Made by a program: the position numbers and the translations under genes | Part shown: in pieces, positions 4,384-39,224 of the stretch | Layout: each line of letters starts with the position of its first letter | Numbering within the stretch: position 1 is the stretch's first letter | Sequence record: MZ398247.1 | Length of the DNA: 39,224 bases | Direction: 5' to 3' (one strand) | Source: Enterobacteria phage IME177 | The notes under the pieces: generated by a model | Told to the model about the DNA's origin: nothing | The model's input: the letters and a program-made list of their open reading frames with translations, nothing else | Database searches by the model: none

Positions 4384-4387
4384 GTGT

Positions 4388-4437
4388 TAGACTCAAGGTC
4401 ATTACTGTATGTAGTGGCCTTTATGGTTAACACTAAC
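4388..4437 (+). promoter_or_regulatory. conserved hairpin element, candidate RNase III processing site (copy 1 of 3)
   Basis: tagactcaaggtcattactgtatgtagtggcctttatggttaacactaac; AAGGUCA pairs with UGGCCUU; near-identical copies at 12871-12920 and 20265-20312. Confidence 0.5.
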
Positions 4438-4484
4438 TAGTGGAGGCGACTCTACGTGAAATCTGATAAACCGGGAGGGCAACT

Positions 4485-9621: not shown

Positions 9622-12303
9622 ATGAGCGTCATCTCTATTGATAAACACGACTTCTCTGATGTGTCGAACGCCATTGAGCCGTTTAACCTGCTGGCCGACC
9701 ACTACGGGCAAGACCTTGCAGTCAAACAGCTTCAGCTTGAGCATGAGGCATATACAGAAGGCGAGCGACGTTTCATCAAGAACCTTGAGCGCCAGACCGA
9801 GCGCGGGGAACTGGCAGACAATCAGGTCGCCAAGCCTTTGATGCAGACTCTGGTCCCTAAGATTGCGCAAGCCGTCAGGGAGTGGCACGAAGGCCTAGAC
9901 GGGAAGCTGTCAACCTCGCGTCCTAGCGTAGCGTTCACCATGTTGAGCACTGAAGAGAAGGCCGTAAAGGACCGCTCTATGCGCATCTCCTGTGAGTCCG
10001 CTGCGGTTATCATACTGAAGGTCATACTCTCCAAGCTGGTCAAGCCTGAAGGGATACCGATTACACCGATGGCCTCCGCGATAGGTCGCACACTTGAGGA
10101 CGAAATCCGCTTCGGTCGCATCCGTGACAAAGAGAAGGAGCACTTCAAGAAGGCGATAGCTGAGAACCTGAACAAGCGAGCTGGGGCATCCTACAAGAAA
10201 GCCTACATGCAAGCGGTCGAGGCGTCCATGCTGGAGCAAGGCCAACTGGAAGATGCATGGGGGACTTGGAGTCCTACAGAGGCTGTCCACGTTGGCATCA
10301 AGATGCTCGAGATTGTCATCCAGTCAACACAACTGGTCGAGCTTAAGCGGTACGGTGCTGGTAATGCAGCGGCTGACGTAGAGATGGTCCACCTGTCAGA
10401 CTTCTGGGTCAAGAAGATGGCACAACGAGGATTCAGCCTTGCGGGTATCGCTCCAGTCTACCAGCCTTGCGTCGTTCCGCCTAAGCCGTGGACTGGTGTC
10501 GTAGGTGGTGGGTACTGGGCCAAAGGTCGCAGACCGTTACCATTGATTCGCTTAGGGTCTAAGTCTGCGGTAGCACGTTATGAAGACGTATACATGCCTG
10601 AAGTCTATGACGCTGTGAACATCATTCAGAATACACCTTGGAAAGTTAACAAGAAGGTATTGGACGTGGTGAACATGGTCGAGAAGCTGAACAACACGCC
10701 TATTGATGACATCCCTCAGATGGAACCGCTGAAGCCTGAGGACTATGCTGGTGAAACCGAGGAGGAACTCAAGGCATGGAAGAAGGCTGCTGCTGGTATC
10801 TATCGCCGCGAGAAGGCCAGACAGTCACGCAGATTGTCCATGAGTTTCATCGTATCACAGGCCAACAAGTTCTCACAGTTTAAGGCCATCTGGTTCCCGT
10901 ACAACATGGATTGGCGAGGTCGTGTCTACGCTGTCCCGATGTTCAACCCTCAGGGTAACGACATGCAGAAGGGTCTACTGACTCTGGCGGTCGGAAAGCC
11001 TATCGGGGCGGATGGTTTCAAATGGCTTAAAGTCCACACCGCCAACTGCGCGGGTGTCGATAAGGTAACCTTTGAGGAGCGTATCAAATGGGTGGAAGAC
11101 AATCACGAGAACATTCTGGCAGCAGCCAAATCACCGATGGACAGCATCGAGTGGTGGGGGAGTATGGACAGCCCCTTCTGCTTCCTAGCGGCTTGCTTCG
11201 AGTATTCTGGGGTGATGAACCATGGCTTGACCTACAATTGCTCACTTCCGATTGCCTTCGACGGCTCGTGTTCGGGGATTCAGCACTTCAGCGCGATGCT
11301 GAGGGACCACGTAGGCGGACATGCAGTGAACTTAACGCCGTCTGGTCAGGTGCAGGACATCTACCGTATAGTCTCAGACCGTGTGTCAGACCAGTTGAAA
11401 GAGCTATTACTGAGCGGTACGGACGACGAGCTGGTGACCGTAGAGGACAAGAAGACTGGGGAAATCAGCGAACGCCTGAAGCTTGGGACCAAGAGTCTTG
11501 CGCGTCAGTGGCTGCAATTCGGTATGTCTCGCTCGGTCACTAAGCGCTCGGTCATGACTCTGGCCTACGGGTCGAAAGAGTATGGGTTCGCCGACCAAGT
11601 GTTCGAAGACACCGTGATGCCAGCGATTGACTCCGGTAAGGGAGCAATGTTCACCGAGCCAAGCCAAGCGTCTCGCTTCATGGCTAAGATGATTTGGGAA
11701 GCTGTGAGTGTGACAGTAGTTGCTGCGGTTGACGCGATGAAGTGGCTTCAAGGTGCCGCCAAGCTGCTGGCTGCTGAAGTGAAGGACAAGAAGACTGGTG
11801 AAATCCTGAAGCCATGCCTTCCGGTACACTGGGTCACACCTGATGGGTTCCCGGTCTGGCAGGAATACCGCAAGAAGGATACCACTCGTCTGAACCTGAT
11901 GTTCTTAGGGTCCTTCAACCTTCAACCTACGGTCAACAAAGGTACGAAGAAAGAGCTGGACAAGCACAAGCAGGAGTCAGGCATTAGCCCGAACTTCGTC
12001 CACTCACAAGATGGTAGCCACCTCCGCAAGACTGTAGTCCACACTCACCGAAAGTATGGCGTGATGTCATTCGCAGTGATTCACGATAGCTTCGGGACCA
12101 TCCCGGCTGACGCTGAGTATCTGTTCCGTGGCGTCCGTGAGACGATGGTAGAGACTTACCGCGATAACGATGTGCTGCTTGACTTCTACGAGCAGTTTGA
12201 ATACCAGCTTCATGAAAGTCAGCGCGACAAGTTGCCTGAGCTTCCGAAGAAAGGTAAACTGAATATCGAAGACATCTTGTCTTCAGACTTTGCATTCGCT
12301 TAA
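9622..12303 (+). CDS. gp1: single-subunit DNA-directed RNA polymerase (T7 gp1-like)
   Basis: 893 aa; colinear with T7 RNAP as recalled, including catalytic-Asp motifs AFDGSCSGIQHFSAMLRD and VIHDSFGTIPADA, specificity-loop region LNLMFLGSFNLQPTVNKGTK, C-terminal FAFA. Confidence 0.97.
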   Translation: MSVISIDKHDFSDVSNAIEPFNLLADHYGQDLAVKQLQLEHEAYTEGERRFIKNLERQTERGELADNQVAKPLMQTLVPKIAQAVREWHEGLDGKLSTSRPSVAFTMLSTEEKAVKDRSMRISCESAAVIILKVILSKLVKPEGIPITPMASAIGRTLEDEIRFGRIRDKEKEHFKKAIAENLNKRAGASYKKAYMQAVEASMLEQGQLEDAWGTWSPTEAVHVGIKMLEIVIQSTQLVELKRYGAGNAAADVEMVHLSDFWVKKMAQRGFSLAGIAPVYQPCVVPPKPWTGVVGGGYWAKGRRPLPLIRLGSKSAVARYEDVYMPEVYDAVNIIQNTPWKVNKKVLDVVNMVEKLNNTPIDDIPQMEPLKPEDYAGETEEELKAWKKAAAGIYRREKARQSRRLSMSFIVSQANKFSQFKAIWFPYNMDWRGRVYAVPMFNPQGNDMQKGLLTLAVGKPIGADGFKWLKVHTANCAGVDKVTFEERIKWVEDNHENILAAAKSPMDSIEWWGSMDSPFCFLAACFEYSGVMNHGLTYNCSLPIAFDGSCSGIQHFSAMLRDHVGGHAVNLTPSGQVQDIYRIVSDRVSDQLKELLLSGTDDELVTVEDKKTGEISERLKLGTKSLARQWLQFGMSRSVTKRSVMTLAYGSKEYGFADQVFEDTVMPAIDSGKGAMFTEPSQASRFMAKMIWEAVSVTVVAAVDAMKWLQGAAKLLAAEVKDKKTGEILKPCLPVHWVTPDGFPVWQEYRKKDTTRLNLMFLGSFNLQPTVNKGTKKELDKHKQESGISPNFVHSQDGSHLRKTVVHTHRKYGVMSFAVIHDSFGTIPADAEYLFRGVRETMVETYRDNDVLLDFYEQFEYQLHESQRDKLPELPKKGKLNIEDILSSDFAFA

Positions 12304-12849: not shown

Positions 12850-12872
12850 CCTAAACTATCACTATAGGATTA
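12850..12872 (+). promoter_or_regulatory. phage RNA polymerase promoter (phi1.1-like), predicted +1 at 12867
   Basis: cctaaactatcactataggatta. Confidence 0.8.
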
Positions 12873-12920
12873 GACTCAAGGTCATGACTCAAAGTCGTGG
12901 CCTTCATGATTAACCCTAAC
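12871..12920 (+). promoter_or_regulatory. conserved hairpin element, candidate RNase III processing site (copy 2 of 3)
   Basis: tagactcaaggtcatgactcaaagtcgtggccttcatgattaaccctaac; same motif as 4388-4437 and 20265-20312. Confidence 0.5.
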
Positions 12921-12942
12921 TCATTCAATCAGGAGCTACACC

Positions 12943-15795: not shown

Positions 15796-15950
15796 CTGAG
15801 GTTGAGAAGAAGTACATCGTGGAGCTTGAGGGACGCGTTCAGTCCTTCGAGGTTCCGTTGTACGCAAAGTCTCTTGAAGAGGCTACCCTGAAGTCCCAAG
15901 AGTATGAGGACGCTGGTTTTGTGGTCGGTCGGATTCGTCCTGAGACCTAA
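15792..15950 (+). CDS. gp2: host RNA polymerase inhibitor (gp2-like)
   Basis: 52-aa ORF below track cutoff; [14 protein letters not shown]...[10 protein letters not shown] resembles T7 Gp2 (SFEVPIYAETLDEA...GFEVTRVRP as recalled); position before SSB. Confidence 0.65.
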
Positions 15951-15968
15951 ACTATCACTGTAGGACAG
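15946..15968 (+). promoter_or_regulatory. variant phage promoter (phi2.5-like), TCACTGTAGG core, predicted +1 at 15963
   Basis: cctaaactatcactgtaggacag; A to G change at -3 relative to the window consensus. Confidence 0.6.
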
Positions 15969-16706: not shown

Positions 16707-17158
16707 TGGCCCAATGGTCTGCAAAACGGGGGCACTCTGTGGGTGCCTACCGCTCTGGACTTGAAGCCAAGAACCAGCAGTGGCTGGAACAGAACGGCGT
16801 CAAAGCGGAGTACGAAAGCCATTATATCAACTATGTGATTCCGGCTTCCGACCACAAGTACACACCAGACTTTATCCTTCCTAACGGTATCATCGTGGAG
16901 ACCAAAGGTATCTTCGATAGTGATGACCGTAAGAAGCACCTTCTGGTACGAGAACAGCACCCAGAGTTAGACATCCGGTTCGTGTTCTCAAGTTCCCGCT
17001 CCAAGTTATACAAAGGGTCTCCGACCACGTATGGCGCATGGTGCGAAAAGAACGGCTATAAGTATGCCGATAAGTTCATCCCGGTTGAGTGGCTGCGAGA
17101 GGCGACTGTACGTCTGCCTTCAGGTATCCTCATCCCCAAGAAGAAAGGAGTTAAGTGA
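16706..17158 (+). CDS. gp3: endonuclease I, Holliday junction resolvase (gp3-like)
   Basis: 150 aa; ...YTPDFILPNGIIVETKG...DDRKKHLLVREQHPELDIRFVFSSSRSKLYKGSPTTYG colinear with T7 gp3 as recalled. Confidence 0.93.
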   Translation: MAQWSAKRGHSVGAYRSGLEAKNQQWLEQNGVKAEYESHYINYVIPASDHKYTPDFILPNGIIVETKGIFDSDDRKKHLLVREQHPELDIRFVFSSSRSKLYKGSPTTYGAWCEKNGYKYADKFIPVEWLREATVRLPSGILIPKKKGVK

Positions 17159-17628
17159 TGACTCAGAAATATAGACTTAAGGTTAGTTGCTACGGGTGGC
17201 CTAAAGGTACTATCGTTACGAAATGTGAGAAAGACCCTGCACCAATATTCGGACTTACTCTGGTGGAATCCACTGAGCGTGGCAAATACAAACACGGAGC
17301 AGCAGGTTATAACACTCAGCCTGATGGTATGTGGGGGGCGTGGGTTGTAAACGAAAATCTTGAGGAAATCGTAGAGGATAAACCTCAAGTCCTGCCAGCC
17401 TCAAGCGTCCCTCCCGTCACCGTTAAACGTGAAGTCCTGACCATCAACAAGATTGGTGTAGGTCAGACGTTCATCGTCCACGGTAAGCCTGACGAAGTGT
17501 ACGTGAAGATTAGTAACTCTCACGTCTTCAACCATAAGTTGCTCCAGATGCACACGACTGACGCACATCGCTTCCAGTCACATCTGAATCTAGTGGTCGT
17601 AGAATTGGTGGTGTACAATGGTAAGTAA
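17158..17628 (+). CDS. hypothetical protein (156 aa), accessory ORF between endonuclease I and lysozyme
   Basis: ATG overlapping gp3 stop (TGATG), RBS aaaggag; no T7 gene occupies this position; no motif recognised. Confidence 0.6.
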   Translation: MTQKYRLKVSCYGWPKGTIVTKCEKDPAPIFGLTLVESTERGKYKHGAAGYNTQPDGMWGAWVVNENLEEIVEDKPQVLPASSVPPVTVKREVLTINKIGVGQTFIVHGKPDEVYVKISNSHVFNHKLLQMHTTDAHRFQSHLNLVVVELVVYNGK

Positions 17629-18076
17629 GGTACAGTTCAACCCACGGTCCCGGACTGACGCTATCTTCGTTCACTGTTCGGCTACCAAGCCAGATATGGA
17701 CATCGGGGTAGAGACCATCCGTATGTGGCACAAGCAGCAAGGATGGCTGGACGTAGGCTACCACTTTATCATCAAACGTGATGGCACTGTGGAAGAGGGT
17801 CGCCCGGTCAATGTCGTAGGGTCACACGTTAAGGACTGGAACTCCAAGTCCGTAGGCGTCTGCCTTGTAGGTGGAATTGACGCTAAGGGCAAGTTTGAAG
17901 CTAACTTCACTCCGGCCCAGATGAACTCACTGCGCAACAAGCTGGCTGACCTGAAGGCCCTGTATCCTCAGGCAGAAATAAAAGCACACCATGATGTAGC
18001 ACCTAAGGCGTGTCCAAGTTTCGACTTGCAGCGCTGGCTATCTACCAATGAACTGGTAACTTCCGACCGTGGTTAA
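17618..18076 (+). CDS. gp3.5: N-acetylmuramoyl-L-alanine amidase / lysozyme (gp3.5-like)
   Basis: 152 aa; DAIFVHCSATKP...WLDVGYHFIIKRDGTVEEGR...KAHHDVAPKACPSFDL...ELVTSDRG nearly colinear with T7 lysozyme as recalled. Confidence 0.95.
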   Translation: MVSKVQFNPRSRTDAIFVHCSATKPDMDIGVETIRMWHKQQGWLDVGYHFIIKRDGTVEEGRPVNVVGSHVKDWNSKSVGVCLVGGIDAKGKFEANFTPAQMNSLRNKLADLKALYPQAEIKAHHDVAPKACPSFDLQRWLSTNELVTSDRG

Positions 18077-18100: not shown

Positions 18101-18316
18101 ATGATTAAACTTATCGAATTTCTTGGTCGTCTGGTGGTGCGTGGTTATCGTCGTGCTGCGGTTATGGAACGAAAGGTAGAAAAGAAGACTGCTGACAGTG
18201 CGGCTGATGCAGCTGCTCTGGCTGACAAGCTGGCCATCGCGTCACTGGAAGCTGGCATGAAGGCACGTCAAGCTGACACCAAAGCTGACCAGTTGGCTCA
18301 GTTCTTCAAAGCCTAA
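18101..18316 (+). CDS. hypothetical protein (71 aa), Ala/Lys-rich
   Basis: ORF with RBS taaaggag; predicted helical, charged. Confidence 0.5.
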   Translation: MIKLIEFLGRLVVRGYRRAAVMERKVEKKTADSAADAAALADKLAIASLEAGMKARQADTKADQLAQFFKA

Positions 18317-18334
18317 ACTATCACCTTAGGGATG
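18312..18334 (+). promoter_or_regulatory. variant phage promoter (phi4-like), TCACCTTAGG core, predicted +1 at 18329
   Basis: cctaaactatcaccttagggatg; followed by hairpin gggacaataagtcctgtccc (18335-18354) and ttt. Confidence 0.5.
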
Positions 18335-20096: not shown

Positions 20097-20261
20097 TTGC
20101 TAAGAAAACTTAAAGCTCGCTACCATCGGTTCATGTACAAATGGTGGAGTGATGAAGCAACCTGCCTGTCCAACATTCTGGGAGACCAGAGGTTCGACTC
20201 TAAGGCATGGAAGAAAGCTAACCGGAAGTTTATGTATCACTTCTTGCGTACAGACTTCTAG
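20097..20261 (+). CDS. small basic protein; start uncertain (TTG 20097 after aggagg, or ATG 20133)
   Basis: In-frame with track ORF 20064-20261; RBS aggagg at 20085-20090. Confidence 0.35.
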   Translation: MLRKLKARYHRFMYKWWSDEATCLSNILGDQRFDSKAWKKANRKFMYHFLRTDF

Positions 20262-36504: not shown

Positions 36505-39224
36505 ATGGCGACTCGTGGTATTCGCAATAACAATCCGGGTAACATCCGGGTAAGTAAGGACCAATGGGAAGGAATGACTGGAGATGATGGCGCATTCGTC
36601 ACCTTCGATAGTCCAGAGTCTGGCGTCCGAGCTTTAGGTAAAAACCTGCTGTCCTACGGTCGCCGAGGTTATGACTCCATCGAGAAGATTATCAACCGAT
36701 GGGCACCTCCTAACGAGAACGACACTAAGGCTTATATCGACTCAGTGGTGGCTGCAACTGGTATTCCAGCTACCCAGAGTCTCGACCTATCGGACCCTGA
36801 CACCCTGTCTTCTCTGGCTCAAGCTATCAGCTTCCATGAGACAGGCTCCCGGTACGACCCTGAAGTCTATCAGAAGGGAGTCGCACGAGCGCTCAATGGC
36901 ATTAGCCCAAAGACTCCACCAGTAAGCGCTAACGTATTTGACGCACTCACGGAAGGACTCAAGGCTAAACCTAAAGTAGCTCTTGGTGAGAACCTTCCGA
37001 CCGCTGCTGGTCTAAACATTGAGGGTCAAGCACCTGAAGCTCCCAACGAATCGTTCGGTGAGATGTTCTATAAGTCTACTGGCGAGACCATGCAGGAACG
37101 AGAGGATCGCTCTACGTGGTTCGGTTTCGGTGCTGCTACAGAAGCTGAAGTGAAGAACTCTATGGTAGGCGTGGCTATCCGCGCTGGGCAGACAGAGGAC
37201 TCACTTGATGTCATTGGCGATGTGTTCAACCCGACCCGCTGGAACAACCATAAGTGGACTCGTGAAGAGCTTGACCAGATTCGTAACGCTGGGGTTCTGC
37301 CTCAGTATTACGGAGTCATTACTGGTGGCTCCCCTCAGAACCTGACCGAGCTTATTAACTTGGCGCTTGAGAACCAGAAGTTGGACCAAGAGAAGGCCAA
37401 GGCTGGGACTGGTGCTCAGTTAGCTGCTGGTGTGATTGGCGCTGGTGTAGACCCTCTGACATACGTTCCTATCGCTGGACAGGTTGGTAAAGGCGGTAAG
37501 CTGGTCAACAAGATGTTCACCGTGGCTGCTCAATCTGGAGCACTGGCTGGTGTGTCCGAGATGGCCCGTACCTCAGTGGCTGGTGGTGATGCTCATGTGG
37601 CTGAAGCTATCCTTGGTGGTGCTCTCTTCGGTGGTGGTATGACTGCTATCGCTGATGGGTTAGGCAGAGCCTTAGGTCGCAACACTAATGAGTTTGCTGG
37701 CCCAGCTACACGTCTGGAAGCTCGTGAGACCGCTCGTAACGTTGATGGTCAGGACCTGTCTCGTCTCCCTATTCAGGAAGGTGAGCAGACCTTTAGTCAT
37801 CAAGGCGTTAAGTTCGCTGACGTTCCGAACGAGCCGGGTAGTGTACGACTGGAAGATGGTTCAATCCTGATTGGTGAGAACCCTCTGAACCCTAAGACAC
37901 GTCAAGTCTTTGATGAAGTGATTGAGCCTGAACGTGCCGCTGCTGGTGTGAACCTTGGTGGGCTTACTGAGATTGGCCTGAAGCTGCTTCGGTCAGAGAA
38001 CCCTGAGATTCGTGGAGTCGCTGCTGACTTAGTGCGTTCACCAACTGGTATGCAGTCAGGGGCCTCAGGTAAAATCGGGACCACTGCGTCAGACGTATTT
38101 GAGAGACTTCGTGCTGTGGACCATCGGTTCTACAACGACATCGACGACGCGGTTACTGAGGCGCTCAAGGACCCATACTTCCAGACAGCATTCTGGCGAG
38201 ACTCTGGCGCATTCCGTCAGGACATCTACCAGCGTGTGTCTATGGCTATTGAAGACGGAAGTGGGAACCTGAAGGCTGAACTGACTCCGGGAGAACTGAA
38301 AGTATATGACCTGCTGAAGAACCAGTTTGACGCCAAGCGTGAGATGATGGAGAACCCGGCGATGTTTGGTCGTCCAGACGCTCAGTCTATCTTTCCGGGT
38401 AGCCGCTTCAAGGGAACCTACGTCCCGCATGTGTATAGCAACCAGATGAAGGAGCTGTACATCAAGGAGCTTGGGAGTCCAGAGGCACTACAGGAGGCCA
38501 TCAAGAAGTCATGGTTGACCAGCTATGCGTCTCGACCTGAGGTCAAGAAACGTGTGGACGAGGCACTCTTAGAGGCTGACCCTACGTTGACTCCAGAAGG
38601 ACTTGCGGCTGCGGTCGATAAGTACGCCAACGATAAGGCTTATGGTATCTCTCACACCGAGCAGTTCGAGCGTTCATCCGTAATGGAAGAGAACATCAAT
38701 GGTCTGGTGGGTCTGGAGAACAACAGCTTCCTTGAGGCTCGTAACCTGTTCGATAGCGATATGTCAATCGTCCTACCTAACGGTCAGACCTTCAGTGTCA
38801 ACAACCTGCGTGAGTGGGACATGGACAAGATTGTCCCGGCCTACAACCGTCGAGTTAATGGCGATATTGCTATCATGGCTGGTACAGGCAAGACCACGAA
38901 GGACATGAAGGACTTGGTTGAGACCATGATGAACAAGGCTGGGGATGACGGTAAGTTGAAAGGTGAAGTATCTACCTTACGTGACACCTTGAAGATTCTA
39001 ACTGGTCGTGCTCGACGTGATGGCGCTGATGATGCAGCCTTCGCTACCGTGATGCGCACAATGACAGACCTATCGTTCTTCGCTAAGAATGCCTACATGG
39101 GTGTTCAGAACTTAACGGAGATTGGTGGTATGCTGGCTCGTGGCAACGTTCGTGCAATGCTGCATCAGAACTTAACGGAGATTGGTGGTATGCTGGCTCG
39201 TGGCAACGTTCGTGCAATGCTGCA
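36505..39224 (+). CDS. gp16: internal virion protein D (gp16-like) with N-terminal lytic transglycosylase-like domain; 3' part continues at window positions 1-1228
   Basis: ATG 36505 after taaggag; ...SPTGMQSGASGK..., ...SRFKGTYVPHVY..., ...YGISHTEQFERSS..., ...NGDIAIMAGTGKTTKD... colinear with T7 gp16 as recalled; frame open to window end. Confidence 0.93.
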   Translation, partial: MATRGIRNNNPGNIRVSKDQWEGMTGDDGAFVTFDSPESGVRALGKNLLSYGRRGYDSIEKIINRWAPPNENDTKAYIDSVVAATGIPATQSLDLSDPDTLSSLAQAISFHETGSRYDPEVYQKGVARALNGISPKTPPVSANVFDALTEGLKAKPKVALGENLPTAAGLNIEGQAPEAPNESFGEMFYKSTGETMQEREDRSTWFGFGAATEAEVKNSMVGVAIRAGQTEDSLDVIGDVFNPTRWNNHKWTREELDQIRNAGVLPQYYGVITGGSPQNLTELINLALENQKLDQEKAKAGTGAQLAAGVIGAGVDPLTYVPIAGQVGKGGKLVNKMFTVAAQSGALAGVSEMARTSVAGGDAHVAEAILGGALFGGGMTAIADGLGRALGRNTNEFAGPATRLEARETARNVDGQDLSRLPIQEGEQTFSHQGVKFADVPNEPGSVRLEDGSILIGENPLNPKTRQVFDEVIEPERAAAGVNLGGLTEIGLKLLRSENPEIRGVAADLVRSPTGMQSGASGKIGTTASDVFERLRAVDHRFYNDIDDAVTEALKDPYFQTAFWRDSGAFRQDIYQRVSMAIEDGSGNLKAELTPGELKVYDLLKNQFDAKREMMENPAMFGRPDAQSIFPGSRFKGTYVPHVYSNQMKELYIKELGSPEALQEAIKKSWLTSYASRPEVKKRVDEALLEADPTLTPEGLAAAVDKYANDKAYGISHTEQFERSSVMEENINGLVGLENNSFLEARNLFDSDMSIVLPNGQTFSVNNLREWDMDKIVPAYNRRVNGDIAIMAGTGKTTKDMKDLVETMMNKAGDDGKLKGEVSTLRDTLKILTGRARRDGADDAAFATVMRTMTDLSFFAKNAYMGVQNLTEIGGMLARGNVRAMLHQNLTEIGGMLARGNVRAML
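39105..39224 (+). repeat. perfect 60-bp tandem direct repeat (2 copies, 39105-39164 and 39165-39224), in frame within gp16, ending exactly at the window end
   Basis: Both copies read tcagaacttaacggagattggtggtatgctggctcgtggcaacgttcgtgcaatgctgca; encodes a duplicated 20-aa segment QNLTEIGGMLARGNVRAMLH that T7 gp16 has once. Confidence 0.9.

Follow-up and report, generated by a model that had tools for sequence, protein, structure and literature searches.

The gene 3.2 locus of phage IME177

The window analysed here is the whole 39,224-nt stretch of Enterobacteria phage IME177 DNA in sequence record MZ398247.1. Between gene 3 (endonuclease I) and gene 3.5 (amidase/lysozyme), it contains a reading frame of 156 codons that corresponds to gene 3.2 of related phages (Table 1). 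A preliminary description made from the sequence alone had called this frame, and its coordinates and flanking genes were borne out, as were the ribosome-binding site aaaggag and an ATG that overlaps the stop codon of gp3. A single base (A) is common to the gp3.2 start and the gp3 stop, in the sequence TGATG at 17156–17160, and an alternative GTG at 17155 lies in frame with the ATG at 17158. All 51 related loci examined have exactly this junction of Shine–Dalgarno sequence, ATG and gp3 stop, whichever N-terminal module follows. At the other end, the gp3.5 ATG (17618) is located 11 nt inside gp3.2, and this 3′ end with its embedded start is also conserved, except at loci with an inserted HNH gene. 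In phages SD6 and PH1061 (L001 and L002; 2793–3164), gp3.2 and gp3.5 are separated by an ORF of 123 aa, annotated as an HNH endonuclease in PH1061 and as hypothetical in SD6; in both, the 3′ end of gp3.2 is recoded (…AATGGAAAGTGA), breaking the usual gp3.2/gp3.5 overlap.

In T7, no gene is present at this place: gene 3 ends and gene 3.5 starts at 10706, so that gene 3.5 does follow gene 3 directly there, as the preliminary description had it. Its placement of the IME177 gene in the class II DNA-metabolism operon also stands, with two phage promoters (15947 and 18313) bracketing a single class II unit, gp2.5-gp3-gp3.2-gp3.5-gp3.7. The EcoDS1 annotation places phi2.5 at the same position as the first of these. 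Purifying selection in the gp3.2 frame, seen in its dN/dS (see below), shows that the gene is translated, and by these comparative criteria gp3.2 is a real, expressed and translationally coupled class II gene.

Table 1. Features of the gene 3.2 locus (positions in the window)
Feature	Position	Strand	Remarks
Phage RNA-polymerase promoter, phi2.5 equivalent	15947..15964	+	CTAAACTATCACTATAGG repeat family, copy 15940-15964
Gene 3, endonuclease I, 150 aa	16706..17158	+	Annotations of relatives; stop overlaps gp3.2 start
Shine–Dalgarno AAAGGAG for gp3.2	17144..17150	+	Within gp3 coding sequence, 7 nt before ATG
gp3.2 coding sequence	17158..17628	+	ATG start, 156 aa plus stop (TAA 17626-17628)
N-terminal module "type 1", aa 1-72	17158..17373	+	Predicted SH3-like barrel; invariant scaffold and hypervariable loop positions
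Hypervariable codon 11	17188..17190	+	17 residue types among 115 proteins
Hypervariable codons 28, 30, 31 around invariant P29	17239..17250	+	
Hypervariable codon 43	17284..17286	+	17 residue types
Hypervariable codons 64-67	17347..17358	+	25 nonsynonymous, 0 synonymous changes (clade A tree)
Pro-rich linker PQVLPASSVPPV, aa 73-86	17374..17415	+	3′ junction of cassette exchange
Constant C-terminal module, aa 87-156	17416..17625	+	Predicted small beta-barrel; phrog_15211 match; low dN/dS
Gene 3.5, amidase/lysozyme	17618..18076	+	Annotations of relatives; start embedded in last codons of gp3.2
Next phage promoter, phi4 equivalent	18313..18330	+	Same repeat family, copy 18306-18330; EcoDS1 annotation

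The promoter core CTAAACTATCACTATAGG occurs in eleven copies, all on the + strand (1225, 6774, 9531, 12851, 14533, 15947, 18313, 24744, 27571, 28567 and 33113), with one or two core mismatches in those at 15947 and 18313; repeat analysis of the genome placed no copy inside gp3.2. A 52-nt direct repeat with 85% identity (4387–4438 and 12870–12921) contains TTAGACTCAAGGTCAT. The promoter at 12851 is closely followed by the second copy, and part of the repeat recurs at 20259 as a third copy; a function in RNA processing or regulation is possible. The window ends in an exact 60-nt tandem duplication (39105–39164 repeated as 39165–39224), situated inside a large late ORF. As the IME177 assembly is circularly permuted, this ORF is cut by the end of the window and resumes at position 1. 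The duplication was probably produced by the assembler and is unlikely to be biological.

Family membership and distribution

IME177 is a Kayfunavirus, and the region around gene 3.2 shares 89–97% DNA identity with K1F, EcoDS1, ST31, CR44b, LI10P1 and others. These relatives carry the same gene, called gp3.2 in K1F and EcoDS1 and 3.01 in CR44b and annotated as hypothetical in all of them. The gp3.2 of K1F and EcoDS1, the gp3.01 of CR44b and the gp3.2 of Cronobacter phage Dev2 agree with the IME177 gene in position, start/stop overlap and a near-identical C-terminal domain, the K1F/EcoDS1-type proteins being 72–94% identical to the IME177 copy. IME177 gp3.2 belongs to this Kayfunavirus family by profile match, by its position after endonuclease I and before the amidase, and by its C-domain motif. 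It matches phrog_16385, a family of unknown function, over its full length (aa 1–156; E 4.6e-94) and phrog_15211 over aa 87–156 (E 7.6e-40).

With tblastn, gp3.2 was detected in 220 of the 225 phage records that have the gp3–gp3.5 region in common at the DNA level. Such conservation, together with purifying selection, had been proposed beforehand as a test of the ORF, and both were found (for the C-terminal module, a dN/dS of 0.09–0.10). The earlier statement that the ORF has no recognisable similarity did not hold, since hundreds of homologues exist, all of them unannotated. Likewise, "inserted" is an apt description relative to T7, but not within the K1F-like lineage, where the gene is the rule. 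Judged by these comparisons, gp3.2 is not a private insertion or novel acquisition of IME177 but a lineage-typical Kayfunavirus gene, in which accessory, exchangeable behaviour is limited to the N-terminal half.

Beyond this lineage, a profile search of 1.84 billion protein cluster representatives gave only 17 matches, all of them gp3.2 family members or fragments, and gp3.2-family contigs of known size are phage genomes of ~39–41 kb. A scan of 185,579 bacterial and archaeal genomes brought up no relatives and hence no host-derived clue to gp3.2. A distant subfamily occurs in Providencia phage PSTCR2 and one Logan contig. In these PSTCR2-like loci, as in all the others, the gp3.2 homologue adjoins the 3′ side of endonuclease I, here with a 4-nt overlap, whereas the amidase follows only after two or three small ORFs; the linkage of gp3.2 to gene 3 is therefore older than its linkage to gene 3.5.

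Several public records in this set call for comment. The K1F records disagree (H82/H83 vs H55/H56): AM084414 encodes a full gp3.2, while DQ111067/NC_007456 matches only to residue 134, which suggests a sequencing or frameshift difference. "Enterococcus phage EFA-1" (L058, MT350292) is a typical Kayfunavirus with a gp3.2 that is 92% identical to that of IME177; for this reason, and given its GenBank flag UNVERIFIED_ORG, its host assignment is doubtful. Four truncated metagenomic gp3.2 fragments (P0131, P0132, P0134 and P0135) share the same odd tails, …VMAANGDTSNGH or …GG(S/R)R(T/I)GGVQW, after different break points, probably representing adapter or technical sequence at contig ends of public assemblies.

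A constant C-terminal module

The C-terminal half of gp3.2 is nearly invariant throughout the genus and ranks among the most conserved sequences of the region. It reads ...VLTI(N/D)KIGVGQTFIVHGKPDEVYVKISNSHVFNHK.LQMHTTDA.RF..HLNLVVVELVVYNGK, and in alignments the IME177 copy has every residue of the invariant motif Y..SNSHxFN....QMHTT...RF. In the distant subfamily, at 33–47% identity, the residues G..F, Y, SNSH.FN, QMHTT and RF are kept. The module is basic (pI 9.5), and numerous relatives, among them Dev2, the Citrobacter SH phages and many phages of Salmonella Typhi, encode it by itself as a gene of 74–76 aa. The alignments thus mark the C-module as the constant core of the gp3.2 family, sufficient alone in many relatives. 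Over 66 codons, it has a dN/dS of 0.09–0.10 with a dS of 0.45, a constraint similar to that on essential neighbouring genes. An embedded promoter or DNA element was rejected as the cause of this conservation, as synonymous sites change without restraint (dS 0.45) and the module contains no copy of the promoter.

An exchangeable N-terminal module

The N-terminal module of IME177, type 1 (consensus GWPxGTIVTKC...LVE...G.YKHG..G..TQPDGMWGAWV), is present in only 55 records. Other phages carry different modules in the same slot: T2 (CKDLxVG..Y.F), T3 (..GTEVFVKP..), T4, T5 and T6, plus singletons, and in a few proteins of 220–227 aa there are two N-modules. The Pro-rich linker is common to several unrelated module types, and hhalign matches between types are limited to it. 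Common origin of types T1–T6 was rejected on this ground, and an origin of the two halves of gp3.2 by duplication was rejected as well, with hhalign giving no N-to-C similarity. The slot has two fixed junctions, at the 5′ side the Shine–Dalgarno/ATG/gp3-stop sequence, which is the same whatever N-module follows, and at the 3′ side the linker, and it therefore behaves like a cassette site with a homology arm on either side. As judged from these alignments, at least six mutually unrelated cassettes have been exchanged between fixed junctions.

Between loci L033 and L041, the N-modules differ by 15.3 nonsynonymous and 0.7 synonymous changes, while their C-modules differ by 25.8 synonymous changes, which means that the N- and C-modules have different histories. 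The distribution of N-module types follows host genus: type 1 is found mostly in E. coli phages (46 of the 55 records) and in only 1 of the 59 Salmonella phage records that have gp3.2.

Hypervariable positions and selection

We compared dN/dS between neighbouring genes by the Nei–Gojobori method over 18 phages carrying the type 1 gene. The values for gp2.5 (dS 0.27, dN/dS 0.11), gp3 (0.27, 0.15), gp3.5 (0.35, 0.12) and the gp3.2 C-module (0.45, 0.09) contrast with those for the N-module (dS 1.03, dN 0.28, dN/dS 0.27), which is ~4 times more diverged than its surroundings; for gp3.2 as a whole, dN/dS is 0.22. Relative to the closest phage, LI10P1, the gp3 and gp3.5 proteins are 100% identical and the C-module differs by 0 nonsynonymous and 6 synonymous changes, compared with 18 and 5 in the N-module. 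The other N-module families all diverge faster than their own C-domains as well, with mean identities (N/C) of 0.78/0.93, 0.70/0.90, 0.57/0.91 and 0.44/0.80. Just after the lysozyme gene, gp3.7 (71 aa, 18101–18316) exists in two allele classes, 93–99% vs 50–65% identical at the protein level. None of the other four genes in the comparison reaches its dN/dS of 0.49, making it another variable accessory gene in the transcription unit of gp3.2.

Among 115 type 1 proteins, invariant positions directly adjoin positions with 16–18 residue types. The (near-)invariant positions are G13, W14, G17–T21, C23, D26, L35–E37, G42, G47, G50, Q54, P55 and G57–W62; the hypervariable ones are 11, 28, 30, 31, 43 and 64–67, with less extreme variation at 8–10, 12, 16, 24, 33, 39, 49 and 51. 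The IME177 module differs at hypervariable positions from every database copy (best match 90% over aa 1–70). A diversity-generating retroelement (DGR) was rejected as the source of this variability, as 17158–17373 has no second copy in the 39-kb genome; the gene set of IME177 is that of a standard T7-like phage.

For a site-level count, 19 hypervariable sites were defined on clade B proteins and substitutions were then counted on a clade A DNA tree, thereby avoiding circularity. At these sites omega was 1.49 (122.8 nonsynonymous and 22.2 synonymous changes; binomial P=0.04), compared with 0.03 at 28 scaffold sites of the N-module and 0.10 in the C-module in the same count, these figures coming from a home-made count by parsimony (16 and 11 sequences) that ignores recombination within the N-module. 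For codon 43, a 12-taxon tree gave 14 nonsynonymous vs 0.8 synonymous changes. Omega at the corresponding sites was 0.86 in the other clade, which is more divergent and saturated. By this count, the 19 sites change at the neutral rate or faster. Diversifying selection on them is likely, on a signal that is marginal rather than conclusive: omega values of 1.5 (P=0.04) and 0.86 are also compatible with wholly unconstrained loop residues.

Predicted structure

AlphaFold2 (AF2) modelling shows gp3.2 as two small SH3-like beta-barrels joined by the Pro-rich linker. Assignment to this fold is based on the five-stranded topology in a confident model and on structural matches to SH3 domains. For the C-module, the nearly invariant alignment alone gave a pLDDT <50, which was remedied by adding the distant subfamily (pLDDT ~90 in the core). 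In the model, 17 of the 19 hypervariable sites fall in predicted loops, whose counterparts in SH3 domains (the RT, n-Src and distal loops plus the 3-10 turn) make up the ligand site. Both halves of gp3.2 resemble small beta-barrels of the SH3/KOW/FeoA kind (eukaryotic SH3 and bacterial SH3-like domains) in predicted fold and differ from them by an unusually long distal loop; in sequence, gp3.2 matches no Pfam family at E up to 1, the SH3, KOW and Tudor families included.

Searches with the predicted fold returned generic barrels and assigned no function. In BFVD, the only matches with E <1e-3 were three family members and an unnamed 142-aa protein with 34% identity, probably a member of the distant subfamily, and the weaker matches were almost all unannotated small phage proteins. 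Sequence searches of Pfam, NCBIfam, PADLOC and PDB with gp3.2 and nine other architectural variants gave no match, including none to the anti-defence proteins in Pfam (such as Ocr, ArdA and Tad2/DUF2829) or the defence proteins in PADLOC. In PHROGs, these queries matched only two unannotated families, 16385 and 15211. An HNH or beta-beta-alpha-Me nuclease was also considered and rejected, with no HNH motif by family models and no nuclease fold. The literature covered, which excludes most subscription journals, contained no functional statement on gp3.2 and no description of its modular, hypervariable architecture, and the genome papers found list it only as hypothetical. The gene and its family were already catalogued; their modular architecture appears to be undescribed.

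Possible roles of gp3.2

A hypervariable, cassette-swapped N-module suggests, rather than proves, a role in the arms race between phage and host. Tentatively, and as the reading we favour, we propose that gp3.2 could be a two-part intracellular binder, serving as a counter-defence or host-takeover accessory; the modularity of the gene, the fast evolution of the N-module and the host association of type 1 speak for this. Acting within the infected cell, the constant domain would bind something conserved, be it a phage protein (e.g. gp3), host machinery, a small ligand or a nucleic acid, with the invariant polar/aromatic cluster S-N-S-H..N/Q-M-H-T-T/R-F as the candidate binding site on the C-module. 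The variable head would recognise a strain-variable host factor, most plausibly a defence or host-range determinant, and the target of the head would be tied to, or blocked through, the constant domain. Specificity might be reset by point diversification of the loops and by cassette swapping. Against this reading, many relatives manage with the C-domain alone, so that the variable head is dispensable in their hosts.

The conserved position behind gene 3 could equally fit a role in DNA metabolism. In such a case, gp3.2 would be an endonuclease I helper that attaches through its basic C-domain (pI 9.5) to gp3, to host DNA or to branched DNA, tuning host-DNA breakdown or junction resolution, and the N-modules would only modulate this. 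Conserved adjacency to gene 3 and the charge of the C-domain argue for such a helper, the lack of gp3.2 in T7 argues against it, and the N-terminal heads are left unexplained; we regard it as unlikely. Alternatively, the N-module might be the very thing that host abortive-infection or sensor systems detect, with loops and cassettes changing for escape, while gp3.2 performs some constant function and its variation does not serve target binding. The evolutionary pattern expected is the same as for a variable binding head, and loss of the whole N-module in many phages would offer an easy escape route. However, a mere liability would be expected to disappear, not to give way to at least six structured modules, sometimes two in tandem, and an omega of 0.03 in the scaffold indicates a positive function, leaving immune escape of this kind improbable.

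Two further explanations fare worse. It is very improbable that gp3.2 acts in competition between phages, its head recognising variable components of co-infecting T7-like phages: what speaks for this is the general arms-race signature and the restriction of the family to virulent T7-like phages, but N-module types are distributed by host genus and specific evidence is lacking. Finally, as gp3.2 overlaps both neighbours, it might have no protein function at all, being either a chance ORF or a spacer over which ribosomes are handed on from gene 3 to gene 3.5. The selection analysis effectively refutes this, with low dN/dS over the 66 C-module codons amid abundant synonymous change and the same strong constraint on the scaffold; the confident AF2 folds and the 33–47% protein identity across genera with an invariant motif also stand against it, and such a reading has next to no probability.

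Comparison with known systems

T7 encodes several small, non-structural class II accessory proteins that bind a host protein (gp2, gp4.5, gp5.5, gp5.7 and gp5.9). Like these, gp3.2 is a small accessory expressed with the DNA-metabolism genes; unlike them, it is absent from T7 and has a two-module cassette architecture, and it is non-homologous to them with a different fold. In its logic, gp3.2 resembles adaptor proteins and the tail fibre or tailspike gp17 of T7-like phages, in which a constant anchor carries a horizontally exchanged specificity domain: by analogy, and with no homology claimed, gp3.2 would combine a conserved docking domain, a conserved junction and unrelated swapped domains. 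It differs from gp17 in that the constant part is C-terminal, the modules are only ~70 aa, and the protein is a class II product that is not a known virion protein.

Taken further, the proposed two-part binder could be a cassette-based system of intracellular recognition, in which an invariant docking domain plugs into a conserved machine. This machine might be phage gp3 or, on the host side, a protease, the RNA polymerase or the ribosome; unrelated, diversifying SH3-like heads, recombined at fixed junctions, would redirect it to strain-specific host immunity proteins or block these proteins. Modular adaptor strategies of such a kind are known from eukaryotic viruses; to our knowledge, none has been described for T7-like phages. 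We consider this extended version a long shot.

K1F-like phages are therapy candidates and model systems. By dividing gp3.2 into a constant domain and a fast-evolving head, the analysis makes it a testable candidate for a host-range or counter-defence determinant, and provides the exact codons to mutate and the junctions for module swaps. Should the adaptor reading hold, the gp3.2 family would offer a compact scaffold, made by nature, on which to build reprogrammable intracellular binders; should it fail, gp3.2 is still a clean example of cassette exchange within one small reading frame.
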